NCBI GenBank assembly: GCA_964493895.1
Contig: CAZBPY010000002.1
Span: 67,351 to 131,350, forward strand
Direction of reading: 5' to 3'
Source: an uncultured Candidatus Saccharibacteria bacterium
GTDB taxonomy: Bacteria > Patescibacteriota > Saccharimonadia > Saccharimonadales > JAGQNJ01
DNA: 64,000 bases
The notes beneath the pieces were generated by a model. The model did no database searches. It saw nothing but the letters and a program-made list of their open reading frames with translations, and was not told the DNA's origin. Of the stretch, positions 4,495 through 27,071 are shown piece after piece. How positions within the stretch are numbered: the stretch's first letter is position 1; each line of letters starts with the position of its first letter. Both the position numbers and the translations under genes were made by a program.

Positions 4495-5916
4495 TTAGTC
4501 CTCTAGTACTTCCCCACCGCCAAAAACTTTTGTTATTGACTCCAGTGTATCAGATTTAGCCGGCTGTCTTGGTTCATCTGGAGCTGGCGCAGCCTGTTTT
4601 CGGGCATTTTTATCGATCTCCGGCCTCATTTCAACCGGCTGGCCGTAGATTTCGGTAATGATAGCCTGAACCTTGTCTTGATTGCGGCTTTCAGCGAACC
4701 GCCGGCGATGAAAATCAAAGGCAAAACCCAGCACTAATACCCCACCCTCAATTGATATTGATGCCATCCGGGCAATACCATAAAGCGTATTATGCGAACC
4801 ACGCAGCTTATCTAACACCTGATCCCAAAGACCGCTTTCCAAAGCAGCCTCCAGATCGCCATTTGGCGCCGGCTTTGAGGTAGTTTTAACGTCTTGGATA
4901 ACCTTTGTTTTCTTTGGTTCGGCGGCAACCGATGCAGGTTTTGCCGCCACGGCCTCTTGACTGCCCAGGGTGTTTTCCAGTAAAACTAGTTCCAACTCTT
5001 GGTATGGTTGCAAAGAACCAGGCACATCAAGAAGCCCGCGCAGTAGCTTCAAAGCCTGACTACGCGGCAACTCGCCCTTCAAAAGAGCCGTTCGCACAGA
5101 ATCAGCCAAGTGCCGAGCCAAAACTGTGGCTTGAATTCCCCGAGATTGAGCTTCATCCAACTCGGCTAGCAGCTCTTTAGGATTATTAACATTTAATGAA
5201 CTGATAATTTTCTCAACAGTGTCGTCCGGCGGAATGCCAAGGTGTTGGCGGACGGCATCTTCAGAAATTTGATCGCTAATATTGCGCAGCTGATCCAATA
5301 AATTGATGCTGTCACGAAAGCTTCCGTTACCATGACGAGCAATAATTTGGGCGGCCGCATCGTCAAGTTTGATTTTCTCCTTCTTGGCAATAGTTTGCAG
5401 ATGCAATGCCGCCTGTTTAGTGTCGATTGGCTTGAAACTGTAGCGCTGAGTCCGGCTAACAATCGTCTCAGGCAGTTTGTGGGCCTCAGTCGTGGCCAGG
5501 ATAAAAATTACATGAGCCGGTGGTTCCTCAAGAGTCTTTAGGAGGGCATTAAAAGCTTCACGCGTTAACATATGCACCTCGTCGATAATATAGACCTTAT
5601 ACGGAGCCTGCAGCGGGCTAAGGCGGGCTTTATCTCTTAGGTCACGGATTTCATCAATCCGGCGGTTACTGGCGGCGTCAATCTCAATAATATCGATATG
5701 CTGCGAATCATCAGTTTTATAAGGCAATTTATTGACCTCATGAGCCAAAATCCTGGCTACACTAGTCTTGCCGACACCACGCGGGCCGGTGAACAAATAG
5801 GCGTGACTGATCTTACCCGATTTCAGGGCTTTATCAAGTGTGTCGGTTATGTGCTCTTGACCGATAACTTTAGACAGTTTTTTGGACCGGTGTGTCCGGT
5901 AAAGTGCTTTCCCCAT
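4495..5916 (-). CDS. dnaX: DNA polymerase III subunit gamma/tau
   Basis: 473-aa ORF with the clamp-loader AAA+ motifs GPRGVGKTS, IIDEVHML and SRTQRY. Confidence 0.93.
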   Translation of the reverse strand: MGKALYRTHRSKKLSKVIGQEHITDTLDKALKSGKISHAYLFTGPRGVGKTSVARILAHEVNKLPYKTDDSQHIDIIEIDAASNRRIDEIRDLRDKARLSPLQAPYKVYIIDEVHMLTREAFNALLKTLEEPPAHVIFILATTEAHKLPETIVSRTQRYSFKPIDTKQAALHLQTIAKKEKIKLDDAAAQIIARHGNGSFRDSINLLDQLRNISDQISEDAVRQHLGIPPDDTVEKIISSLNVNNPKELLAELDEAQSRGIQATVLARHLADSVRTALLKGELPRSQALKLLRGLLDVPGSLQPYQELELVLLENTLGSQEAVAAKPASVAAEPKKTKVIQDVKTTSKPAPNGDLEAALESGLWDQVLDKLRGSHNTLYGIARMASISIEGGVLVLGFAFDFHRRRFAESRNQDKVQAIITEIYGQPVEMRPEIDKNARKQAAPAPDEPRQPAKSDTLESITKVFGGGEVLED

Positions 5917-6745: not shown

Positions 6746-7165
6746 TTAAGCCAACTCGACAGTGGCGCCAGCTTCTTCCAAGGTTTTCTTGGCAGCTTCG
6801 GCGTCTTCCTTCTTAGCCTTTTCTAGCACAGGCTTTGGAGCCCCGTCAACAACGGCTTTAGCCTCACCAAGGCCTAGACCGGTGATGTCTTTAACAGCCT
6901 TAATGACGGCCACCTTCTGAGCTCCGGCGTCCTTTAGAACGACGTCAAACTCAGACTTTTCTTCACCGCCGGCTGCTTCACCGTCACCGCCGGCAGCCGG
7001 AGCTGCGGCTACGGCAACTGCTGGCGCAGCTGCGCTTACTCCCCAGTATTCTTCGAGGAATTTTACAAATTTACTGATTTCTAGAGCCGACATTTTGTCC
7101 AGCTCAGCCACCAATTTTTCGAACTCTTTTGGAGTTTCGACTGTTTTCTTATCTTCTTCAGCCAT
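6746..7165 (-). CDS. rplL: 50S ribosomal protein L7/L12
   Basis: 139-aa ORF with an Ala/Gly hinge and the conserved C-terminal domain ([28 protein letters not shown]). Confidence 0.95.
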
Positions 7166-7177
7166 ATCTGTTCCTTT

Positions 7178-7705
7178 CTATCCTTGTTCTGCCTTGGCAG
7201 TTAATACATTTAAGAAACCGCGCAGGTTTCCATTCAGTACATTGACAAATCCGCTCAGCGGTGCTCCCAATGTACCAACCAGTTGTGCTCTTAGGGCATC
7301 CTTGCTTGGCAAGCTGGCCAGTGATTTGACATCATCAACCGACATAAACTGTCCATCTGGGGTGATAGCTCCGACGAATTGAATCGATGGATTCTTCTTA
7401 GCGAAGTTGGCCAGCACCTGGGCTGGAGCCACTTCATCGTCAGAGTTAAAGGCGTACATCAGCTGTCCGGTTAGTGCACTGGTGTCAGTATCTTTCAAAC
7501 TTTCAGTTGCCAGAATAGCTTGGCGAACCAAGCGGTTCTTGACAACTTTTACAGTTGTATTACTGTCACGAGCGCTGCGGCGCAGCTCCTGCATTTGCTT
7601 GACGGCGGTACCTTGATACTGGGCAATAACGGTCAGCTTCGACTTGCTTAATAGCTCGGATACATCGGCGACAACTTGATTCTTTTGATCTTTTGTTAGA
7701 GCCAT
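7178..7705 (-). CDS. rplJ: 50S ribosomal protein L10
   Basis: 175-aa ORF directly upstream of rplL with an L10-like N-terminus. Confidence 0.93.
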   Translation of the reverse strand: MALTKDQKNQVVADVSELLSKSKLTVIAQYQGTAVKQMQELRRSARDSNTTVKVVKNRLVRQAILATESLKDTDTSALTGQLMYAFNSDDEVAPAQVLANFAKKNPSIQFVGAITPDGQFMSVDDVKSLASLPSKDALRAQLVGTLGAPLSGFVNVLNGNLRGFLNVLTAKAEQG

Positions 7706-7908
7706 TGTTCCTCCTTGATTATTAGCATCGACCTAGTTGTTAACGTACTTCGCGCCTAAAAAAGTCCCTGGACGAGCCAAGGACGAAGAGAAACTACAAA
7801 TTACTTTGTAATAACCTCGGCGACATGATTAAGCCTAGATTGCTCTTCGGCCGTCGCTGTCTTTGGCGAATACCCTGTTATTTTATATTGAATTCAGATC
7901 GAGGTCAA
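7706..7908 (-). promoter_or_regulatory. rplJ promoter and structured leader with attenuator-like hairpin
   Basis: TTGACC-15nt-TATAAA lies at 7908..7882. The leader contains CCTTGG-ctcgt-CCAGGG followed by acTTTTTT (7782..7758). An L10-leader role is inferred from position only. Confidence 0.35.
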
Positions 7909-8945: not shown

Positions 8946-9314
8946 GTGAGCACAATTGAAATTGATCCGCTATCCTGCAAAGAAGCAGCAAACCTAATGT
9001 ACCTGAACGCTGTTAAGGACTTTGCTGAATTTATTGACCCCGAACACAGTCGGAATAGCTTTCGTTATCTGGTTCCAAGAAATACTGGTAACCCTGACAT
9101 GGATAAAATGCACCAACAGGCTGAGGAGATGCTATTGTATGGTATCGGTGCCGTTGCTTTGACGGAAAAAGAGACATTGTTCGAAACAGCCCATGACGTG
9201 CGTCTGCATAAGCTTCTTGAAACTGACCCTAACGGCCAGGAGATAATGATCACCTATCAGGCTGCGCGTCCAGCTGGACATCTACCTAGTTTTAGTCCAG
9301 TTGATTTAGTTTAA
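8946..9314 (+). CDS. hypothetical protein (P122), GTG start
   Basis: 122-aa ORF with TTGATT-16nt-TATGAT (8909..8936) 9 nt before the GTG. It converges on and overlaps the tmk-thyX 3' end by 23 nt. Confidence 0.5.
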   Translation: MSTIEIDPLSCKEAANLMYLNAVKDFAEFIDPEHSRNSFRYLVPRNTGNPDMDKMHQQAEEMLLYGIGAVALTEKETLFETAHDVRLHKLLETDPNGQEIMITYQAARPAGHLPSFSPVDLV

Positions 9315-11628
9315 ATTGCGTGTAACGCTCAGCAGCCAAACGGGTTAACTCGGGATCTTCGTCTTGGTTTACGAACTTCATATGGCTGGCTAGAATCGGG
9401 TGAACCTCGGCAACTTTATCATGCATGGCCTTTGTTAGTTTTCGGTAGTTGGGATGTCCCTGTGGCGAGGTCCGTAGTTCATGCCAGTGGAAAGCTTGAC
9501 GGGCGTTGTAGGTCACCTTCCAGCGCATTTTATGCCCAAGTAGCGTGGCGTATTGAGCTTCTAAATGATAGCCGGCACTTTGCAAGCGACTGTACAGACC
9601 TAAACTGATATCAAAGCACCGTTCAAATTGTTCACTTAAGCCAGCTTCTTCGACGAGCTTCGGTACTTCATAGCCGTATCGTGGAGTCAGAGCTTGCCAC
9701 TGAAGGTCATCAACTATCCGGTGCCGTTGAAGATCACGGAAACTCCCATAGTCACAGACCAGGTCAAAACTATAATGGGCTTTTTCCAGAGCCCGTCCTG
9801 GTCGATGCCGGCGATTTAGCCGCTCACCCATGTAGGCTTCTATGACCTTGGTTTTTTGGCTGTATTTCCAATCAGCGACTGTTTTGCGAATCTCGGTTAA
9901 TGGCAGGTTGCTGTGTTCGTAAAGCATATCAGCCGCCAAGTCCAGCTCATTGCGTGGCCAATAATCAGTTAGTGTCACATCTGTCGTTTCAGGGGCAAGT
10001 GAGGCTGGCAGCAGTTCTTCGGTAACTTTTTTCATGATTTTTCTGGTATCTGACCGGTAAGCAATCATGGCGCCGCCGCGTTCTGGTTTGTCAGCTCGCT
10101 CTAAGAAGGCGGGGATAACCTTTCGGGCTTCGCGCAGAATTTTATCGCCGGTTTCACGGGCTTCTAGCAGTTCATCAGCTTGCAAGTGCATAATTAGGCT
10201 CTCCAGGGCTTGGCCGGAAGCAAAAATGCCAACAGTAGACGTTGTAGCTACTGGCAGTACCGGCCGAATGGCATCGCAAGCCTGAGCCCGTGTAGCGCTG
10301 CGCCAGGCTCCGTCTCGTTCGGATTCTGGGGTGCTGGAATTATTCTGAATATAGTCGGTTAGTTTGCGAACCATTGTCGAATACAGATCAAAAATTGTAT
10401 CCATATCTTGGTTGTACAGTGCCTGAGTCGCCATATTAAACTGCTTGGGTGTAAAATACCGATATTTGCCGTTTTTATCCTTGCGATCGAAGTAAATATA
10501 GCGAGTTGACTGCTCAAGATAAGCCGCCAGTCGCCCCCACTCCAACTTTTTAGTCAGCAAATTGGAAGCATTTTCGACCACCAGATGAGTTCCGACTAGT
10601 TGCTGGACGGAATCATCGCCATAAGCTGTGATTACTCGATGTAACAGCTGTTCGTCTTTCTCGGCTGCCTGAGTGAATTCGTCCAGGATTGTTACCCGCA
10701 TGTCATCACCTCGGCGGCTCAGCCGAGCCATAGCAGCGGCAGTTGTAACTGGACTGACACCTTTTCCGGAGAAGACATAGACATCTCCTTCAGTGTCGGT
10801 GATAGCCTTGGCCAAAAAGGCGCGCCCACTGGGGGTAATTTCGTAGCCGGAATCTGTCTTGGTTACATAAGGGTTTTCCTCCTCTACCTGATTACCAGCT
10901 GATCTAGACTCGGTCGAAGCCTTCTTTTCCGGCAAAAGCGGCTGAATCGTTTCACGCACCAACTTACTAATCGTATCAACATCAAGCATCTTGTTGTCTC
11001 GGGTACAGTCAATTCGAGCAAAATCTTTTGGGAACAACTGGCAGAGTTCGTCATAAACTTCAACCGAAAGCTTGAGGTGCGACAGATCAGCCTCGTGGAT
11101 ATCCCGGCGTTTTTTTGTATAACTGCGAGTATCTTTTTGATCAACTAATTGTTGAGCTACTTCTGCCGGAACTCTTAAGACGATGCTTTTAGACGGTCGT
11201 GGAATGTTCATCATTTGAAATTCTAGGTTATCTATCCAGATGAAATAGCCGCGGCGCTCTTCGGTGTTATTGAATTTTGTGCCCTGATGAGCCATGTTTG
11301 AGCCTGTAAATCTATTGGCAAGCACCACCTTGCCTTCTTGCAAAGCTCGATGAATCGCTGGAGCGGCCTGGTAACGATCGAGGGCATAAAACAGTGATGC
11401 CGTATATGGTCCGACATCTTCTGGGCCACCATACTCACCGTTGAGATACTGTTGCACAAAGTAACTGGATGGCTCATCATAACGGGGAAAATCAAAGGTG
11501 ACGACATCATAGCCATCGGCGATAAGTTGATCACGCAGTAGGTTGAACTGTGTATTTTTACCCGAGCCATCAGTTCCCTCAATAACAAGAAAAACACCCT
11601 GATGTTGGTTGCTCTTATCGTCAGTCAA
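9292..11628 (-). CDS. tmk-thyX: fusion protein: thymidylate kinase (N-terminal) + double-length ThyX-like flavin-dependent thymidylate synthase (C-terminal)
   Basis: 778-aa ORF. Residues 1-210 carry the P-loop IEGTDGSGKNTQ and ALDRY (Tmk). The C-terminal ~530 aa has two ThyX-like halves, one with EQSTRY and one with LQRHR ... TPRY. Confidence 0.8.
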   Translation of the reverse strand: MTDDKSNQHQGVFLVIEGTDGSGKNTQFNLLRDQLIADGYDVVTFDFPRYDEPSSYFVQQYLNGEYGGPEDVGPYTASLFYALDRYQAAPAIHRALQEGKVVLANRFTGSNMAHQGTKFNNTEERRGYFIWIDNLEFQMMNIPRPSKSIVLRVPAEVAQQLVDQKDTRSYTKKRRDIHEADLSHLKLSVEVYDELCQLFPKDFARIDCTRDNKMLDVDTISKLVRETIQPLLPEKKASTESRSAGNQVEEENPYVTKTDSGYEITPSGRAFLAKAITDTEGDVYVFSGKGVSPVTTAAAMARLSRRGDDMRVTILDEFTQAAEKDEQLLHRVITAYGDDSVQQLVGTHLVVENASNLLTKKLEWGRLAAYLEQSTRYIYFDRKDKNGKYRYFTPKQFNMATQALYNQDMDTIFDLYSTMVRKLTDYIQNNSSTPESERDGAWRSATRAQACDAIRPVLPVATTSTVGIFASGQALESLIMHLQADELLEARETGDKILREARKVIPAFLERADKPERGGAMIAYRSDTRKIMKKVTEELLPASLAPETTDVTLTDYWPRNELDLAADMLYEHSNLPLTEIRKTVADWKYSQKTKVIEAYMGERLNRRHRPGRALEKAHYSFDLVCDYGSFRDLQRHRIVDDLQWQALTPRYGYEVPKLVEEAGLSEQFERCFDISLGLYSRLQSAGYHLEAQYATLLGHKMRWKVTYNARQAFHWHELRTSPQGHPNYRKLTKAMHDKVAEVHPILASHMKFVNQDEDPELTRLAAERYTQFKLNQLD

Positions 11629-18631: not shown

Positions 18632-18707
18632 AGGGGAGTAGCTCAATTGGTAGAGTAGCGGTCTCCAAAACCGTTGGTTGCAGGTTCAAGTCCTGTCTCC
18701 CCTGCCA
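18632..18707 (+). tRNA. trnW: tRNA-Trp (anticodon CCA)
   Basis: Cloverleaf read by eye: acceptor AGGGGAG/CTCCCCT, anticodon loop CTCCAAA, T-loop GGTTCAAGTCC, encoded CCA end. Confidence 0.9.
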
Positions 18708-19246: not shown

Positions 19247-19321
19247 TGGAGCCGACGACGAGGATTGAACTCGTGACCTCATCCTTACCATGGATGCGCT
19301 CTACCACTGAGCTACGTCGGC
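19247..19321 (-). tRNA. trnT: tRNA-Thr (anticodon GGT)
   Basis: The reverse complement is GCCGACGTAGCTCAGTGGTAGAGCGCATCCATGGTAAGGATGAGGTCACGAGTTCAATCCTCGTCGTCGGCTCCA, with anticodon loop ATGGTAA. Confidence 0.9.
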
Positions 19322-19428: not shown

Positions 19429-20517
19429 GTGAACAAAATTAGTTTGCCAGTGAGTATTTTACTGATCGCTATTGTAATTGGAGCCATTGTTTTCGGCTAT
19501 ACTCAGAGGTCACGAACGCCGAATTTACCCGATCCGCCGCTGAAAGAGCTGGCAGATAAACACAACGTCGAGCTGGGCAATTTCGCAATTCTAAATCGCT
19601 TGGATGAGCAGCCTTATCGCGACATTTTGACCAGCGAGTTTGATTTTGTTTTGGCTGATAACACCCCTAATTGGCATTTCACCGACGGCGGTCTGCGCCC
19701 CAGCAAAGACGAGTTCAACTTCAAGCAAATGGATGAAGTCATGCGTTTTGCTCAAGAGAACAATATGCCGGTACAGGCTCATCATTACTTGTGGGGTGAA
19801 GAAAAGTGGCTGCCGGATTGGCTCAAAGAAGGTAATTTTTCTCCGGAGGAGCTCAACAAATTGATAGAGACGCACATCAAAACAGTTGGCAGCCGCTATC
19901 GGGGTCAAATTCGTGAATGGACCGTTGTCAACGAAGCCTTTAGCCGCAATTCTCACATCTATGGTTTGCGTGACTGGTGGGCCGACAACACCGGCGGGCT
20001 TGATTACATTGATCAAGCATTCCGATGGGCTCGTGAGGCTGACCCCGACTCTAAGCTAATTCTGAACGATTTTCTCAATGAAAGCCGCAACGACATCTCT
20101 GATGCTATGTATGAATATCTAAAAAGCGCCTTGGCCCGCGGCGTGCCAATCGATGGAATTGGTATGCAAATGCATATTGATGGCACACATCCGCCTACGA
20201 AAGACGAGGTCGTTTCTAATATGAAGCGCTTTGAAGAGCTAGGCCTTGACGTGTATGTGACTGAGTTTGACGTCAACATGAACGATCTGCAGGCCAGCAG
20301 CAGTAATAAGAACCAGGTTCAGGCCCGGATCTATAACGAGATGTTATCGGCTTGTCTGGAGGTTGATGCCTGTAAAAGTTTTGCTCTACTTGGCATAACC
20401 GATAAGGAAACCTGGTATAACTATGTTGGCCTGGAAGATCCTAGGCCGCTGCCGTTCGATGATAAATACCGTCCTAAGCCAGCTTATTTTTCGATGCGCG
20501 AAGCTCTGCAGCGATAA
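19429..20517 (+). CDS. glycoside hydrolase family 10 endo-1,4-beta-xylanase with N-terminal TM/signal anchor
   Basis: 362-aa ORF with a GTG start and the GH10 motifs WTVVNEA (acid/base Glu), GIGMQMH and VYVTEFD (nucleophile Glu). Confidence 0.85.
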   Translation: MNKISLPVSILLIAIVIGAIVFGYTQRSRTPNLPDPPLKELADKHNVELGNFAILNRLDEQPYRDILTSEFDFVLADNTPNWHFTDGGLRPSKDEFNFKQMDEVMRFAQENNMPVQAHHYLWGEEKWLPDWLKEGNFSPEELNKLIETHIKTVGSRYRGQIREWTVVNEAFSRNSHIYGLRDWWADNTGGLDYIDQAFRWAREADPDSKLILNDFLNESRNDISDAMYEYLKSALARGVPIDGIGMQMHIDGTHPPTKDEVVSNMKRFEELGLDVYVTEFDVNMNDLQASSSNKNQVQARIYNEMLSACLEVDACKSFALLGITDKETWYNYVGLEDPRPLPFDDKYRPKPAYFSMREALQR

Positions 20518-20949: not shown

Positions 20950-21035
20950 TGGTGCAGGGGGAGGGATTCGAACCCCCGAAGGCATAAGCCAGCAGATTTA
21001 CAGTCTGCCGTGTTTGACCGCTTCACTACCCCTGC
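20950..21035 (-). tRNA. trnY: tRNA-Tyr (anticodon GTA), long variable arm
   Basis: The reverse complement is GCAGGGGTAGTGAAGCGGTCAAACACGGCAGACTGTAAATCTGCTGGCTTATGCCTTCGGGGGTTCGAATCCCTCCCCCTGCACCA. Confidence 0.9.
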
Positions 21036-21145
21036 GCAGACGACTCCAGTTCAGAGTCGTGCAACACCTCCCTGACTGTTCCCCATGAACAAAGTCGTTC
21101 GGGAGTTAGATATCTCTCGCAGTGATATCTATCCAAATTTTTAAA

Positions 21146-21222
21146 TGGAGCCGCCTGTCGGATTCGAACCGACGACCTACGGTTTACAAAACCGTCGCTC
21201 TAACCAACTGAGCTAAGGCGGC
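21146..21222 (-). tRNA. trnT: tRNA-Thr (anticodon TGT)
   Basis: The reverse complement is GCCGCCTTAGCTCAGTTGGTTAGAGCGACGGTTTTGTAAACCGTAGGTCGTCGGTTCGAATCCGACAGGCGGCTCCA. Confidence 0.9.
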
Positions 21223-21929: not shown

Positions 21930-22790
21930 TCAAAGTTGCAAGAATAAGTCTGTTAGGACCAGTTTTGGACTAGCATTAGCTTTTAGAGCTTTCTGAGCCT
22001 GACTATTGCTGCGATTCACTTTCTGCCACTGTTTGGCTGACTTTGTGTTGCCAGCTTTTACGGCTGCTTTCAATGAGGCATGCGACACCAAAGCCAAAGC
22101 ATCTAGTAACCTACTCACCATTTCCTTGTTCTTTAACAGTTCATTAACTTTTAATAATCGCTTGTAGGGGTCCTGTTGGAGCAGTTCCTTAGCCTGATCG
22201 ATGGCCGCCAGCAGCGGATGGCTTTCGTCAGTCATTAAAGCCTGCAACAGACCGACTCGCCCGCCGGAAATCATAAAATTTCGCTTAAATTCTGGGCTGT
22301 TGCCAAAGTGAGCAGCCGCCGTGGTTTCAGACACCGGCAAAACTGGTAATGTCTGGGCTCTGGACACCACTGTTGGTAATAGCTGAGATGGATGTTCTGC
22401 GCATAGAATGAATATAGTGTCCGCCGGCGGCTCTTCCAGTGATTTAAGCAATGCATTTTGAGCCTCTGGTGTCAGCCGAGCCGCCTCTGTAATCATCACT
22501 AGCCTGCGCACTGCAGCTTGTCCCGGAACTACCCTAGATAGTTGTGACTGTACTTGGCGAACCTGATCTATTGAAATTGAATCTTTGCCCTCTTCCGGTT
22601 TGACAACAATCAGGTATGGGTAAGACTTTAGGCTTGCTTCGCTAACTTTTAGGATTCTCCCGGCAATATTCAGTGCTAAAAACTGCTTGCCGCTGCCAGA
22701 TGGGCCGTGAATCAGCAGTCCTGAACTGGGCGTGGCGACAACGTTGTCAACGGCTTTGGCGGTTTGTTCAGCCAACAAAAGTTTATCCAT
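21930..22790 (-). CDS. holB: DNA polymerase III subunit delta-prime
   Basis: Clamp-loader-like (HGPSGSGK, LLKSLEEPP, SRAQT). The start is moved to ATG 22790, giving an 8-nt overlap with rluD instead of 47 nt. Confidence 0.75.
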   Translation of the reverse strand: MDKLLLAEQTAKAVDNVVATPSSGLLIHGPSGSGKQFLALNIAGRILKVSEASLKSYPYLIVVKPEEGKDSISIDQVRQVQSQLSRVVPGQAAVRRLVMITEAARLTPEAQNALLKSLEEPPADTIFILCAEHPSQLLPTVVSRAQTLPVLPVSETTAAAHFGNSPEFKRNFMISGGRVGLLQALMTDESHPLLAAIDQAKELLQQDPYKRLLKVNELLKNKEMVSRLLDALALVSHASLKAAVKAGNTKSAKQWQKVNRSNSQAQKALKANASPKLVLTDLFLQL

Positions 22791-23646
22791 TGACGACCTC
22801 CTGAAACACCGGTGGTACTGGTGATTCAAAGATCTGCTGTTTTTTGTTTGGCAATCTAATTTTCAGTTGCCAGGCGTGCAACATTAGGCGATCAGCCGGC
22901 GGGCCGCCATAAAACGGATCGCCGACAATTGGGTGCCCCAGGTGCTTTAAATGCACACGCAGCTGATGAGTACGGCCAGTCATCGGCAACAACTTGACAA
23001 GTGAATAGCCGTTACCGGTTCCAATTGTCTGATACTCGGTAATAGCCGCCCTGCCCTTAGAAGACACAGTAAATGTCTTAGGATTCCTGGGGCTACGGGC
23101 AATTGGGGCCTCAATGACCGCCTCTGGTGGGCTGAGAGATCCCCCTACAACCGCTACATACTCTTTGTGAACCTTTCGGCTGCTGAACTGTTTTTGCAGC
23201 CAGCTCAGTGCCTCGGAGGTTTTGGCGCAGATAATAACACCTGATGTTCCTCGGTCCAGTCGATGGACAATTCCGGCCCGCTCTCCCTCCAAATCAACTA
23301 ATTTAGGCCGGATAAAGCTGGCTATCGTTGCCTCTGGGTTGAAGCCGCCTTTGGAGTGAGTCAAAACTCCGGTAGGCTTGTCAACTACAATACAGTCATC
23401 ATCTTCATATAAGATTGGTAAGTCAATATCCGGGATATCATCTAGATCGGCCGGGTCAAACTCGACGCTGACTTTATCGTTGGCTTTAACTTTGTACTTG
23501 TTTGGCTGGCTATAGCCATTGACTTTAACCTTCTCATCAGTACACAATTTTTGAATCGGACTGCGGCTCAGTTCAGTAATTTTGCCGGCTAAATACTGAT
23601 CCAAACGCGCCCCAGCCTCATCTGTTGCAACAGTGAAAGTTTGCAT
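22783..23646 (-). CDS. rluD: RluA/RluD-family 23S rRNA pseudouridine synthase
   Basis: 287-aa ORF with an N-terminal S4 domain and the catalytic motif HRLDRGTSGV. Confidence 0.85.
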   Translation of the reverse strand: MQTFTVATDEAGARLDQYLAGKITELSRSPIQKLCTDEKVKVNGYSQPNKYKVKANDKVSVEFDPADLDDIPDIDLPILYEDDDCIVVDKPTGVLTHSKGGFNPEATIASFIRPKLVDLEGERAGIVHRLDRGTSGVIICAKTSEALSWLQKQFSSRKVHKEYVAVVGGSLSPPEAVIEAPIARSPRNPKTFTVSSKGRAAITEYQTIGTGNGYSLVKLLPMTGRTHQLRVHLKHLGHPIVGDPFYGGPPADRLMLHAWQLKIRLPNKKQQIFESPVPPVFQEVVNG

Positions 23647-23651
23647 AAGGA

Positions 23652-24680
23652 CTACTTTCTTAGGCCGACGGCTGTTTGGACCCGCCTGAGGGTTTTATCA
23701 GCAACTTCATTCATCGACGACTCAGATTGCTTTAATTTTTGCCGAAGCTTGGCTTCATCAACTTTGGCTAATCGACTTTGAAAGTCATTTAAGAAGTTTT
23801 TAACAACCTCGGCCACCTCTTGTTTGAAGGGCCCATATTGGGTTTGACCCTGGTATTTTTGTTTGACAGCTCCTAGATCTTCGTCTGACAAAGCAGCATA
23901 AATATCCATCAGATTGCTAATTCCAGGTTGTTTTACATGATCATAATTGATTTTTCCAAGACTATCAGTTGTGGCTGCCATAATTTTCTTGGCCGCTACA
24001 TCGGGCTCATCACCAAGGAAAATTACGCCTTTACCAGAGGCGTCTGATTTGCTCATCTTTTTGGTTGGCTCTAACAAATCTTTAATTCTTATTCGCTGTT
24101 GTTGAGCAGTGAAGGCGATTTGTTCTTTCTCGGCCTCTGGCGGGCTCAGCAAGTTCTCACCAAACTTATTATTTAGCCGAATGGCAATGTCACGAGCCAG
24201 TTCGACATGTTGGGTCTGATCAGCACCTACCGGCACATATTTAGCTCCGTAAAGCAAGATGTCAGCCGCCATAAGCACCGGATAATCAAACAGTCCAACT
24301 GAGACCGATTCTTGCTGATCAGCCTTCTCTTTAAACTGGGTCTGACGCGACAATTCTCCCATATAGGTAAAGCAGTTTAGAATCACTGTCAGCTCGCTAT
24401 GGGCTGGAATTCGGCTCTGACGATAAATGTAGGTGCTGTTATCATCAAGATCTAAGCCAGGTGCCACAAACAGCTTTAAATTATGCATGATCTGGTCATG
24501 CAACTTGCTGTGATCAACCGGTGTTGTAAAGCTATGCAAATCTGGCACAAACAAATTAATCTGATACTGACCAGCGTATTGTCGCTGCAGCTGAACAATT
24601 GGCAGCAAAGCCCCTAGGTAATTACCGAGATGCAAATCATTGTTGGCTCTCAAGCCAGTTAAAATCACCGGTTGGCTCAT
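23652..24680 (-). CDS. trpS: tryptophan--tRNA ligase
   Basis: HIGH-type HLGNYLG and KMSKS motifs. ATG 24680 is preferred because GAGGAG lies 5 nt upstream; the ORF-track start is 24692. Confidence 0.92.
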   Translation of the reverse strand: MSQPVILTGLRANNDLHLGNYLGALLPIVQLQRQYAGQYQINLFVPDLHSFTTPVDHSKLHDQIMHNLKLFVAPGLDLDDNSTYIYRQSRIPAHSELTVILNCFTYMGELSRQTQFKEKADQQESVSVGLFDYPVLMAADILLYGAKYVPVGADQTQHVELARDIAIRLNNKFGENLLSPPEAEKEQIAFTAQQQRIRIKDLLEPTKKMSKSDASGKGVIFLGDEPDVAAKKIMAATTDSLGKINYDHVKQPGISNLMDIYAALSDEDLGAVKQKYQGQTQYGPFKQEVAEVVKNFLNDFQSRLAKVDEAKLRQKLKQSESSMNEVADKTLRRVQTAVGLRK

Positions 24681-24698
24681 ATTACTCCTCATTATATC

Positions 24699-25559
24699 TC
24701 ATTGAGCCTGTGCCTCATACGGTATCTGTCCGGCTGGGTATGAACCTAATATCTGCACCTTGCATCCAGTGGCTTTAATTTTGTCTAAAACCTGTTTGGT
24801 TCTATCCTCAGACAAGCCAGCATGAAACTCGACAAAGAATTCATTATGAAAAGGGCTGTTTGGAATAATGGCAGATTGTAAATCAGTCAAAGTAATTCTA
24901 GCTTCTTTAAACGGAGTTAGTATGTCCACTAAAGCGCCAGCCTTCTCCCCAGTAGTCATAACCACTGAGGTTTTATTAGCCTCTGAGATAACCGGTACTT
25001 CACCGTTCCGCAGCTTGACTTCTACAAAACGAGTAATATTATTCTGGTCATCCTGGATTGACTGTGCTAATGGCTCTAATCCGTACAGTTGACCAGCTCG
25101 CTCACTGGCAATCGCTACCATACGAGGATCAGCAGTTTCAGCAACTAGCTTGGCACTGCCAGCAGTGTCATGCTCAATTATTGGATGAGCCTGCGGCAAT
25201 TGTGTTTCCAAAAATACAGTACACTGATCAAGCGCTTCTGACTGCGAATGCACCTCTGTTATATCAGTTAGCTTGGCATTGGGAAGCCCGAGTAGGGCAT
25301 GGTTGACTGGCAAATAAGCCTCGCCTACAATTGTCAAATTGCTGCCGCTTGATCTGATCGGATCATAGACCGGCCCGATAAAACCGATGCGGTTATTGGC
25401 TATAGCCATGATGGCTGATTCAATTTCTTCATTGTGCAGAGCTTTTAAAGTATCTGAAAATGTCTCGTAATAATGCAGATTGGCATTAGGGTGCACAGAC
25501 AGCGCTACCTCTTCAGTATAGGAACCGGGCTGACCCTGTATTCCAATGATAGTTGACAT
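24699..25559 (-). CDS. pheA: prephenate dehydratase (PDT + ACT domains)
   Basis: 286-aa ORF with GQPGSYTEE, NITRF and a C-terminal ACT-like domain. Confidence 0.82.
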   Translation of the reverse strand: MSTIIGIQGQPGSYTEEVALSVHPNANLHYYETFSDTLKALHNEEIESAIMAIANNRIGFIGPVYDPIRSSGSNLTIVGEAYLPVNHALLGLPNAKLTDITEVHSQSEALDQCTVFLETQLPQAHPIIEHDTAGSAKLVAETADPRMVAIASERAGQLYGLEPLAQSIQDDQNNITRFVEVKLRNGEVPVISEANKTSVVMTTGEKAGALVDILTPFKEARITLTDLQSAIIPNSPFHNEFFVEFHAGLSEDRTKQVLDKIKATGCKVQILGSYPAGQIPYEAQAQ

Positions 25560-25580
25560 ATTTATCCTTTCTAGGCATTT

Positions 25581-25603
25581 AAAAAACCGCCTGGTGGCGG
25601 TTT
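25581..25603 (-). terminator. rho-independent terminator/attenuator 22 nt upstream of pheA
   Basis: Minus strand reads AAACCGCC-acca-GGCGGTTT followed by further Ts (6 T in total). Confidence 0.65.
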
Positions 25604-25634
25604 CTTCTCTTAATCAATATTAATTAGTCCGCCA

Positions 25635-25685
25635 CTAGTTGGTGCCGGTAAACCAAAAGGCTGAGTTTTGGTTTAATCTAATCAT
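25635..25685 (-). CDS. 16-aa leader peptide MIRLNQNSAFWFTGTN (Phe-Trp-Phe regulatory codons)
   Basis: The ATG lies 9 nt after the -10. The codons TTT TGG TTT form the 3' arm of a 9-bp hairpin, and the TAG stop abuts the antiterminator arm GTGGCGG. Confidence 0.45.
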   Translation of the reverse strand: MIRLNQNSAFWFTGTN

Positions 25686-25694
25686 AACTTTAAG

Positions 25695-25723
25695 ACAATA
25701 CACCCTATGGCTGCTTATGTCAA
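25695..25723 (-). promoter_or_regulatory. promoter of the pheA-trpS leader
   Basis: TTGACA-17nt-TATTGT, beginning 15 nt after the rpsI stop. Confidence 0.45.
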
Positions 25724-25738
25724 TGGGAAAATAAGAGG

Positions 25739-26137
25739 TTAACGCTTGGTGAATTGGCGCTGTTTTCGGGCGCCCTTAAGACCAAACTTCTTGCGCTCTT
25801 TTTCGCGCGGATCGCGACCTAGTAAATCAGCTTTGCGCAAGGTGCTCTTCAGATCTTCATTCATGACTGCCAAAGCCTTGGCAATACCCAACTTGATGGC
25901 ATCGGCTTGGCCGGAGTGGCCGCCGCCGGTGACTTTGACCGAGACATTGTGCTTGTTGACAGCGTCAACGGCAATAAAAGGCTTTTGCAACTCTAGAAGA
26001 AACTTTTTACTTTTCATGAAGTAATCTTCAGCTGGCTGGTCGTTAATGACGATCTCGCCTTTGCCATTTGTCAGACGAACTCGGGCCGAGGCACTTTTGC
26101 GCCGCCCTAATCCGTAAAAATAGGTGTCTTTAGCCAT
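25739..26137 (-). CDS. rpsI: 30S ribosomal protein S9
   Basis: 132-aa ORF with GGGHSGQADAIKLGIAKAL and a KR-rich C-terminus ending RQFTKR. Confidence 0.95.
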   Translation of the reverse strand: MAKDTYFYGLGRRKSASARVRLTNGKGEIVINDQPAEDYFMKSKKFLLELQKPFIAVDAVNKHNVSVKVTGGGHSGQADAIKLGIAKALAVMNEDLKSTLRKADLLGRDPREKERKKFGLKGARKQRQFTKR

Positions 26138-26574
26138 TATTTACCTTCCTTCAATGAAAACGCGGCTGGCTTTTGAGCCTGGTGGTTGTGCTGATCATCC
26201 CTGTAAACCTTCAACCGAGCTAGGCGTCCCGGTCGCAATTTATTAGCCGTAATCATGCCTCGAACGGCCTTTTCAATGGCTTTTTCCGGTGCCATATCCG
26301 ACAAAGCAGTCTCTTTGATGCCACCAGGATAGCCCGTGTGACGGTAATACTTCTTTTTGGATTGCTTGTCACCGCTAACCACCATCTTAGAGGCGTTAAC
26401 TACAATCACATAGTCACCCCCATCTACATGAGGCGTGTAAGTTGGCTTGTGTTTGCCTGTCAGCAGGGTTGCCACTTGAGTGGCTAGGCGACCCAAGGGC
26501 ACCTCTGAAGCGTCGACAAGGTACCAGACGCGCTCTACTTCAGCTGGCTTTTGACTGAATGTCTTGGCGGTCAT
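26137..26574 (-). CDS. rplM: 50S ribosomal protein L13
   Basis: 145-aa ORF with WYLVDASEVPLGRLATQVATLLTGKHKPTYTPH. Confidence 0.95.
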   Translation of the reverse strand: MTAKTFSQKPAEVERVWYLVDASEVPLGRLATQVATLLTGKHKPTYTPHVDGGDYVIVVNASKMVVSGDKQSKKKYYRHTGYPGGIKETALSDMAPEKAIEKAVRGMITANKLRPGRLARLKVYRDDQHNHQAQKPAAFSLKEGK

Positions 26575-27071
26575 TTCTTTGCCCCCGTCTTCTTAGCAGT
26601 AGCCTTTTTGGCGGCTGGTTTGCTAGCAACTGACTTGCTGTTAGCAGTAGTGGTTGTCTTAGCCGCTGTCTTTGGCTTAGCCTCAGATTCAGCCTTGACA
26701 GCAGCTTTGCTTAAATCATCAACAAAACTAACTTTGGCTAACTGAGCATTGTCGCCGCGGCGGAAACGAGTCCGCACAATCCGCAAATAACCACTATTGC
26801 GACTGTTTAGCTTCGGTGCAATGTCATCGACCAATTTATGGGCGGCTTGCACCGTCATTACACCTGCAATTACCTGGCGCCGCGAAGCTAAATCACCCTT
26901 TTTAGCCTTGGTAATCAATTTTTCGACATATGGTCGGATTTCTTTAGCTTTTGGCAGTGTGGTCTCGATAGATTCATTAATAATCAGCGACTCAGCCAAA
27001 TTCTTTATAAGTGCTCGGCGTTGATCGCGTTGGCGTCCGAATTTTCGACCTTTATATCCGTGGCGATGCAT
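26571..27071 (-). CDS. rplQ: 50S ribosomal protein L17 with Lys/Ala-rich C-terminal tail
   Basis: 166-aa ORF beginning MHRHGYKGRKFGRQRDQRRAL, with a 4-nt overlap with rplM. Confidence 0.94.
   Translation of the reverse strand: MHRHGYKGRKFGRQRDQRRALIKNLAESLIINESIETTLPKAKEIRPYVEKLITKAKKGDLASRRQVIAGVMTVQAAHKLVDDIAPKLNSRNSGYLRIVRTRFRRGDNAQLAKVSFVDDLSKAAVKAESEAKPKTAAKTTTTANSKSVASKPAAKKATAKKTGAKK

Follow-up and report, generated by a model that had tools for sequence, protein, structure and literature searches.

Locus organization

We describe a candidate transcription attenuator in a 64-kb stretch of DNA from Candidatus Saccharibacteria (TM7, Patescibacteria). This stretch as a whole is called the window below. 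The element lies on the minus strand, in a 179-nt spacer between the ribosomal protein gene rpsI and pheA. Gene order on this strand was rpoA, rplQ, rplM, rpsI, the spacer, pheA, trpS, a pseudouridine synthase gene, holB and the gene of a TPR protein. The genes from pheA to the TPR protein were nearly abutting, with a gap of 6 nt between pheA and trpS.

The organism is known from assemblies alone, and the element was read from sequence. The RpoA encoded in the window was 79-82% identical to proteins labelled Candidatus Saccharibacteria or Saccharimonadales. PheA relatives in species-representative GTDB genomes belonged to metagenome-assembled genomes of Candidatus Saccharibacteria, the closest being merely 45-54% identical to the window protein. 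Pfam showed no chorismate mutase domain in this PheA. The genes and features of the locus, including the leader open reading frame (ORF), are listed here in the direction of transcription.

25739-26137, minus strand: rpsI (Pfam Ribosomal_S9)
25741-25739, minus strand: rpsI stop codon TAA, by direct reading of the sequence
25718..25723, minus strand: -35 hexamer TTGACA, 15 nt past the rpsI stop, with a 17-nt spacer to the -10 hexamer
25695..25700, minus strand: -10 hexamer TATTGT, its end 9 nt before the leader ATG
25635..25685, minus strand: leader ORF MIRLNQNSAFWFTGTN, ATG to TAG, 16 codons plus stop (ATG at 25685, TAG at 25637-25635)
25666..25674, minus strand: 5' arm AAACCAAAA of a hairpin with the regulatory codons TTTTGGTTT, specific to the window
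25650..25658, minus strand: regulatory codons TTT TGG TTT (Phe10-Trp11-Phe12), read in the sequence and conserved in relatives
25642..25648, minus strand: region 1, CCGGCAC (anti-antiterminator), pairs with region 2; local hairpin of -9.0 kcal/mol
25629..25635, minus strand: region 2, GTGGCGG (core GGCGG at 25629-25633), its first base shared with the end of the stop codon
25594..25603, minus strand: region 3, AAACCGCC plus AC of the loop, terminator 5' arm; its CCGCCAC (25600-25594) is the perfect complement of region 2
25581..25591, minus strand: region 4, GGCGGTTT (25591-25584) plus a T run ending at 25581, terminator 3' arm and U-tract
25565-25569, minus strand: pheA Shine-Dalgarno motif AAGGA, within the gap between terminator and ATG
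24699-25559, minus strand: pheA, monofunctional prephenate dehydratase (Pfam PF00800, PDT, E = 4.6e-49)
23652-24692, minus strand: trpS, tryptophan-tRNA ligase of the class-I W/Y type (Pfam PF00579, E = 3.3e-53)
22783-23646, minus strand: pseudouridine synthase gene, close behind trpS
21930-22829, minus strand: holB, close behind trpS and the pseudouridine synthase gene

The leader unit in the window

A previous sequence-only reading of this stretch had proposed leader-peptide attenuation upstream of pheA-trpS, and all of its parts were found again where it had placed them. They include the sigma-70-type TTGACA-17 nt-TATTGT promoter 15 nt past the rpsI stop (10/12 in a promoter scan), the ATG at 25685, nine nt past the -10 box, that opens a mini-ORF with Phe-Trp-Phe codons, and the two pairings open to GTGGCGG. 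Region 2 can pair with region 1, with one central G/G mismatch, or with region 3. The latter pairing is perfect over 7 bp (GTGGCGG/CCGCCAC), reaches -14.7 kcal/mol as a 2:3 duplex, and is exclusive with the terminator. Judging by the position of the promoter, the 5' end of the window transcript should lie 0-3 nt before the leader ATG, which would make it leaderless or nearly so.

The terminator consists of AAACCGCC (25603-25596), the loop ACCA, GGCGGTTT and the T run, and has a stability of -16.7 kcal/mol with its A/U foot. Hairpin and T run were present as described before, although the terminator ends 21 nt ahead of the pheA ATG (25559) and not 22 nt, a trivial difference. Between the terminator and this ATG no usable promoter was found, the -10 box of the sole promoter-like site in the promoter scan falling within the coding sequence of pheA. 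Transcription of pheA must therefore cross the terminator, as the previous reading had maintained for pheA-trpS.

The terminator hairpin (25584-25603) is nearly symmetric, and the plus strand, with its T-rich tail CTTCTCTT, was also scored as terminator-like. A simple terminator scan missed the hairpin on the minus strand, where it counted the T's as part of the stem. There is no convergent gene to use the plus-strand version.

Folding the minus strand and comparing the alternatives had been suggested as a check. The 141-nt strand folded at -39.9 kcal/mol, against -24.1 +/- 3.2 kcal/mol in dinucleotide shuffles (z = -5.0, 0/200 as good), and the predicted fold contained exactly the hairpins named previously. 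Given this z-score and the recurrence of the arrangement in 18 other distinct loci, the arrangement in the window exceeds chance expectation. One of the predicted hairpins, AAACCAAAA/TTTTGGTTT at the Phe/Trp codons, is a perfect 9-bp hairpin in the window, or 10 bp when a flanking T:A pair is counted. It was not found in relatives and is therefore probably not essential.

Conservation of the leader unit in related loci

Syntenic loci were fetched via pheA and rpoA relatives and then scanned for the leader signature, which gave 19 distinct leader versions, the window included. The pattern TGGTTY-N13-17-GGCGK was scanned for on both strands of the whole 64-kb window and of all fetched loci, and no second leader copy was found in the window. 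A conserved mini-ORF with Phe/Trp codons, proposed earlier as something to look for in relatives, was present in the 18 other loci. These mini-ORFs have 14-26 codons, and their start codon lies in frame, 27-33 nt ahead of the Trp codon, so that a short ORF rich in the cognate codons lies 5' of the regulated genes, as in leader-peptide attenuators generally. Trp is codon 10-12 and is encoded within an invariant TGG TTT in all 19 leaders. Outside the aromatic motif the peptide varies freely, as seen in the Trp-aligned examples MISKQLHKTFFWFTDLHARRTD, MTTQRSVRFFWFTDTHVAE, MKQLIINFVDWFTFRRWAAVPVRIKK, MICREMNKVYFWFADTYPWRTD, MNKLSQYFYFWFTTPQMAVCSVRA, MNNTTFFFLWFKYAVKAVI and MISFNHKVNFWFTDTIRVAD.

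The promoter belongs to the conserved unit. A TTGACA-like hexamer with 16-18 nt spacing was seen in 17-18 of the 19 leaders, and at least 18 of them have a good -35/-10 pair with 6-10 nt between the end of the -10 box and the start codon (L079 was judged by eye). In all 19 leaders, window included, the 14 nt ahead of the leader start lack a Shine-Dalgarno-like motif, in contrast to the downstream genes of these loci, each of which is preceded by one. The mini-ORF would evidently be translated from a leaderless or near-leaderless transcript. The near-leaderless start had been called unusual from the window sequence; it turned out to be the conserved rule of this leader family, with precedents in Actinobacteria (PMC8079986).

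Region 2 is conserved as RNA. In 19/19 leaders its GGCG(G) starts at a distance of 20, 22 or 23 nt downstream of the T of TGG, and depending on the frame it is translated as Ala-Val, Trp-Arg, Arg-Arg or Val-Ala, unless it follows the stop codon. The constraint must therefore act on the RNA and not on the peptide. The distance from Trp codon to stop ranges from 15 to 48 nt, and the offset of the stop codon from region 2 runs from -7 to +28 nt, so a ribosome that translates the leader or terminates on it would cover this region. With the spacing found in all 19 leaders, a stall at the Trp codon would free region 2 and a ribosome at the stop would mask it.

Region 2 is followed by 23-49 variable nt, an AACCGCC-loop-GGCGGTTTT terminator, a Shine-Dalgarno motif and the first gene. 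This terminator (AACCGCC-loop-GGCGGUUUU) is common to all 19 leaders, in each of which a GC-rich hairpin with a U tract separates the leader ORF from the first gene. Taken together, ORF, Trp-Phe codons, GGCGG spacing, terminator and near-leaderless start recur in 19/19 loci, in line with the leader-peptide attenuation proposed for the window.

The leader was absent from the more distant Saccharibacteria pheA loci (L018-L029 and L048-L071). In one of these, L052, pheA begins 16 nt after rpsI, with neither leader nor terminator (around 2480-2500). Locus L121, whose RpoA is 88% identical to that of the window, has neither pheA nor leader; a 119-codon reverse ORF is found between its rpsI and trpS (7300-7740).

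Alternative pairings

For the stall model, a mask covered the RNA as far as 13 nt beyond the first base of the Trp codon, while region 4 was withheld as untranscribed. Under these conditions regions 2 and 3 paired, with 6-10 pairs, in all 13 leaders tested. Native 2:3 duplexes averaged -15.1 kcal/mol, compared with -14.1 kcal/mol for cross-genome combinations (permutation p = 0.022).

A whole-leader alignment by MAFFT misplaced the terminator arm in three sequences. Pairs were therefore counted on gapless spliced blocks of fixed length, anchored on the cores, an engineered alignment with which the following counts should be read in mind. The terminator (3:4) was 90.1% paired across the 19 leaders, and no shuffle matched its covariation score. 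The antiterminator (2:3) was 70.8% paired, with five core pairs almost invariant; the pair just outside this core was UA in ten leaders, GC in two, AU in one and UG in one. Its covariation score was 0.090 versus 0.057 in shuffles and was reached by 12/500 of them, a fraction that is not a probability according to the caveat of the tool.

For the seven leaders closest to the window, RNAalifold independently predicted the 1:2 hairpin as CCGxCAC/GUGxCGG. Two of its pairs showed compensatory changes, AU to UA in one case and CG to UA twice. The compensatory changes that the sequence-only reading had asked for in relatives were thus found for 1:2 among the closest seven, and 3:4 was supported, while for 2:3 they were modest.

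Regulated genes and separation from the rpsI terminator

The Phe and Trp codons had been said to match the two downstream genes, and the Pfam assignments (PDT and W/Y tRNA ligase) agree with this. Both genes lie downstream of the leader in the window, but among the relatives it is trpS and not pheA that is the constant partner. It was found downstream of the leader in every locus with enough sequence, and pheA, the usual partner, was absent or located elsewhere in two loci (L118 and L007). In L118 (RpoA 90% identical to that of the window) pheA is lost, and the leader is followed by a 60-codon ORF and trpS; this ORF is acidic and takes the place of pheA (6838-7020). In L007 the leader precedes small ORFs and trpS, and pheA is found at another site. 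The L007 ORFs before trpS have 84 and 41 codons (5468-5872), and L079 has a 114-codon ORF before pheA (921-1265); none of these three small ORFs had a Pfam match. Locus L010 has a 3-deoxy-D-arabino-heptulosonate 7-phosphate (DAHP) synthase gene, pheA and trpS behind the leader, and an extra ORF between rpsI and the leader unit. The DAHP synthase gene (666-1550) is inserted ahead of pheA.

The hairpin with its T run might be read as the plain terminator of the rplM-rpsI operon, the mini-ORF and pairings being fortuitous and pheA-trpS being transcribed by read-through or from another promoter. There is indeed no other terminator between rpsI and pheA in the window or in several relatives, and the symmetry of the hairpin would fit a plain terminator as well. 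However, a conserved promoter stands between the rpsI stop and the terminator, and the 21 nt from T run to pheA ATG offer no space for another one. Three loci (L004, L011 and L016) carry their own rpsI terminator, a hairpin plus T run, ahead of the promoter-leader-terminator unit, so the leader terminator is not merely the end of the ribosomal protein operon. In L007 and L010 the unit does not adjoin rpsI and travels with its target genes, trpS or the DAHP synthase gene. ORF, Trp-Phe codons and GGCGG spacing are kept in all 19 leaders while the surroundings vary. We regard a plain rpsI terminator as very unlikely, and the comparative data appear to refute it largely.

The attenuator hairpin of the window probably also ends read-through transcripts from rplM-rpsI, as no other rpsI terminator was present there. 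On transcripts started at rplM-rpsI the leader AUG would be internal and have no Shine-Dalgarno motif, so that termination would be the default.

The signal read by the leader

Aromatic residues were enriched in the leaders, making up 23% of residues versus 7% in window proteins. Phe accounted for 12.7%, Trp for 5.5% and Tyr for 5.3% of leader residues, compared with 3.3%, 0.7% and 2.9% in window ORFs, an enrichment of 4-fold, 8-fold and 2-fold, respectively. The residue ahead of Trp was Phe or Tyr in 17 of the 19 leaders. Other aromatic codons flank the Trp-Phe pair, with TTT and TTC, and TAT and TAC, all in use, and the L010 leader reads YFWF...Y.W.

Conservation of UGG-UUU-A at the nucleotide level exceeded what the peptide needs. 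The Phe codon after Trp was TTT in 19/19 leaders, compared with a TTT usage of 62% for Phe in the window, and the next base was A in 18/19 despite variation in the encoded residue (T, I, K, S or A). No conserved pairing partner for UGG-UUU-A was found in the window and the 18 other loci. Its invariance may reflect an extra function that classical attenuators do not have, for example a sequence-specific stall context or a trans role of the released leader RNA of ~105 nt.

This excess conservation bears on an alternative in which the attenuator is coupled to translation but reports general translational capacity (ribosome availability or growth rate) rather than the supply of aromatic aminoacyl-tRNA. 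Any slowed leading ribosome would then free region 2, and the Trp-Phe codons would be kept for another reason, such as RNA pairing of UGGUUUA. Such a role would suit an operon that also holds the housekeeping genes holB and the pseudouridine synthase gene, and the equilibrium fold of the untranslated RNA would be regions 2:3 in most relatives. Yet the amino acids specified by the invariant codons are exactly those that the two constant downstream genes serve, the use of all four Phe and Tyr codons at the neighbouring positions points to selection on the amino-acid class, and L010 combines its aromatic-rich leader with DAHP synthase, the common aromatic step. We therefore consider a sensor of general capacity unlikely.

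Highly unlikely, in our view, is a switch run by a sensor other than the ribosome, be it T-box-like reading of tRNA-Trp, a TRAP- or PyrR-like protein or a TnaC-like arrest peptide. In the T-box-like version, UGG would be the specifier and the UGGC of region 2 would pair with the tRNA 3' end. UGG is invariant, and region 2 reads UGGC in 12/19 leaders, a sequence resembling the UGGN bulge of T-box antiterminators. This UGGC is not invariant, however; AGGC, GGGC and CGGC were also seen. There is no Stem I, and only some 30 nt separate UGG from the predicted 5' end.

Rfam searches likewise gave no T-box match. At E <= 10, positions 24000-27000 of the window produced only chance-level small RNA matches driven by the terminator hairpin, and at the gathering score the 18 related loci produced tRNAs only. 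A T-box riboswitch was rejected on these grounds, as was membership of the Rfam families Phe_leader and Trp_leader, and since no Rfam family matches, the element is not a sequence relative of the enterobacterial Phe/Trp leaders or of T-boxes. Binding of a tRNA or a protein would make the in-frame start 27-33 nt upstream and the open frame needless, and both are kept in 19/19 leaders; a TRAP-like array of (G/U)AG repeats is missing from the window leader. A TnaC-type arrest peptide was rejected because its conserved Trp...Asp...Pro-stop spacing is absent: the distance from Trp to stop spans 15-48 nt, there is no conserved Asp or Pro, and the residues after Trp-Phe are unconserved.

Proposed mechanism

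A classical ribosome-mediated leader-peptide attenuator probably controls the pheA-trpS-rlu-holB operon in this Candidatus Saccharibacteria genome. It would sense the charging of Trp and Phe tRNAs, and in some loci of Tyr tRNA, through a leaderless leader peptide. The sequence elements, their conservation, their fixed geometry and their capacity for alternative pairings are observed in the 19 loci; from them we infer the start site, the translation of the mini-ORF, the stalling and the amino-acid response, as follows.

Transcription would start at the leader AUG or within about 3 nt of it, and a ribosome would load on the 5' end without a Shine-Dalgarno motif and trail the polymerase. When charged Trp-tRNA and Phe-tRNA are plentiful, it would reach the UAG and cover region 2 (GUGGCGG). 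Regions 3 and 4 would then pair, and the AAACCGCC/GGCGGUUU-UUUU terminator would halt transcription 21 nt before pheA. In the relatives, a ribosome translating across region 2 would likewise hide GGCGG and favour the terminator.

Under a shortage of charged Trp-tRNA or Phe-tRNA, the ribosome would stall on UUU-UGG-UUU, covering region 1 but not region 2. Ribosomes reach ~12-15 nt beyond the A or P site, and a stall here would leave region 2 about 5-10 nt past the leading edge, free to capture region 3. The 2:3 pairing would form before region 4 is made, no terminator would arise, and pheA (Phe synthesis) and trpS (Trp charging) would be transcribed. With no ribosome on the leader, regions 1:2 and 3:4 would form and transcription would terminate. 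Low charging of Phe-tRNA would thus raise pheA, and low charging of Trp-tRNA would raise TrpRS, the tryptophan-tRNA ligase. The same logic from charging to expression is known for E. coli pheA and pheST (PMC11802643).

Several results weigh against this interpretation. The window leader has three regulatory codons (one Trp and two Phe), fewer than E. coli pheL. The essential genes holB and the pseudouridine synthase gene lie in the same tight operon past the terminator, and their expression would require considerable basal read-through or promoters within the operon. When full-length leaders were folded at equilibrium under the ribosome mask, the terminator stayed the minimum free energy structure in 9/13, including the window. 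The switch must therefore be kinetic, with 2:3 forming before region 4 is transcribed, as in classical systems. Because regions 2, 3 and 4 have invariant cores, the covariation of the antiterminator is modest. The 1:2 hairpin was not recovered in the 12 more distant leaders, for which RNAalifold gave the terminator only, and across all 19 leaders it did no better than composition-matched shuffles. The 1:2 pairing of the sequence-only reading is accordingly predicted for the subgroup of the window, with compensatory changes, and was not recovered in the distant half.

Saccharibacteria are ultra-small epibionts with reduced genomes that probably obtain amino acids from their hosts, and to our knowledge almost nothing is known about their gene regulation. 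In full-text literature searches no attenuator was found to be described for Saccharibacteria or Patescibacteria. As a tentative joint reading, to which we give clearly less than even chances, this could be the first ribosome-mediated attenuator, and one of the first amino-acid-responsive cis-elements, documented in the candidate phyla radiation (CPR, Patescibacteria), as well as a lineage-specific invention of a Saccharibacteria subclade. In this combined picture a single leaderless mini-ORF would read Trp, Phe and in some cases Tyr charging and would couple a salvage-type Phe enzyme with the Trp-tRNA ligase, and window-like genomes would use the attenuator also as terminator of the upstream ribosomal protein operon.

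If attenuation operates as proposed, Saccharibacteria monitor the charging of aromatic aminoacyl-tRNAs and treat pheA and trpS as a regulated unit. Tight coupling of transcription and translation would be kept in these bacteria (a NusG gene is located within the window), leaderless leader peptides would extend beyond Actinobacteria, and a compact regulatory part of ~145 nt would be at hand. The textbook attenuation mechanism would be unchanged; the interest lies in its conservation in a poorly understood phylum.

Other features of the window

Genes for tRNA-Thr(tgt) and tRNA-Tyr(gta) are found at 20950-21222 on the minus strand, directly 3' of the operon-ending TPR gene and on the same strand; tRNAs are likewise found 3' of the TPR gene in related loci. 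A tRNA-Trp(cca) gene is located ~2.5 kb beyond this pair on the opposite strand (tRNA coordinates listed: 18632-18707, plus strand, and 19247-19321, minus strand). The glycoside hydrolase family 10 (xylanase-type) gene at 19429-20517 (plus strand, E = 1.9e-80) is the sole large plus-strand gene in its stretch.

A 778-codon ORF at 9292-11628 (minus strand) holds a thymidylate kinase domain (residues 16-210) and a ThyX (Thy1) domain (553-744) in one frame, an apparent fusion of two enzymes of the dTTP pathway. It is adjoined by a dCTP deaminase-like gene. The ribosomal protein L1 ORF (12418-13386, minus strand) has 322 codons as listed, with the L1 domain only at residues 125-314, so the protein either starts further downstream than this ORF or carries a long extension at its N-terminus.

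Comparison with known attenuators

The four-segment design, with 2:3 and 3:4 pairings and a 1:2 pairing predicted for the subgroup of the window, is that of E. coli trpL. There, too, the regulatory codons lie about 20 nt before region 2.

E. coli pheL-pheA resembles the element in its parts, having a short leader with Phe codons, alternative hairpins and a terminator directly before the prephenate dehydratase gene. Its logic, by which a stall leads to the antiterminator and full translation to the terminator (Zurawski et al. 1978, via PMC11802643 and PMC3082878), is also the one proposed here. In place of the seven-Phe run and Shine-Dalgarno start of pheL, the leaders described here have two to four aromatic codons around one invariant Trp and a predicted leaderless start. 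The operon also differs in including trpS and a monofunctional pheA, and there is no sequence similarity.

Control of an aminoacyl-tRNA ligase by a leader rich in its own amino acid is known from pheM-pheST (Springer et al. 1985; for trpL, Yanofsky 1981; both via PMC11802643). Instead of a Trp-Trp pair or a Phe run, the leaders here have a single Trp flanked by Phe or Tyr, and one attenuator would serve the biosynthesis of one amino acid and the ligase of another.

Leaderless leader peptides are known from Actinobacteria, among them Streptomyces lividans trpL2-trpS, where a leaderless leader with one Trp codon lies upstream of trpS (PMC8079986). The element has in common with it a single-Trp leader before trpS and, as predicted, a leader peptide from a leaderless transcript. 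The S. lividans leader has no clear U-tract terminator (PMC8079986), in contrast to the canonical terminator found here; Phe/Tyr codons and control of pheA are further differences, and the two belong to different phyla and have no sequence relationship. Leaderless regulatory short ORFs are also known from mycobacteria, where they contain Cys codons (bioRxiv 10.1101/834739).

The aroR leader of Corynebacterium glutamicum (Phe-Tyr-Phe), located before the aroF operon (Neshat et al. 2014, via PMC11802643), likewise has three consecutive mixed aromatic codons and targets in the aromatic pathway, and the leader of L010 also precedes a DAHP synthase gene. The leaders described here differ from aroR in their [F/Y]-W-F motif with an invariant Trp, in having trpS as the constant target, and in belonging to another phylum with unrelated sequence. 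The element shows the parts that define a leader-peptide attenuator, with 1:2 predicted for the subgroup of the window, and its particular features each have precedents among known systems.

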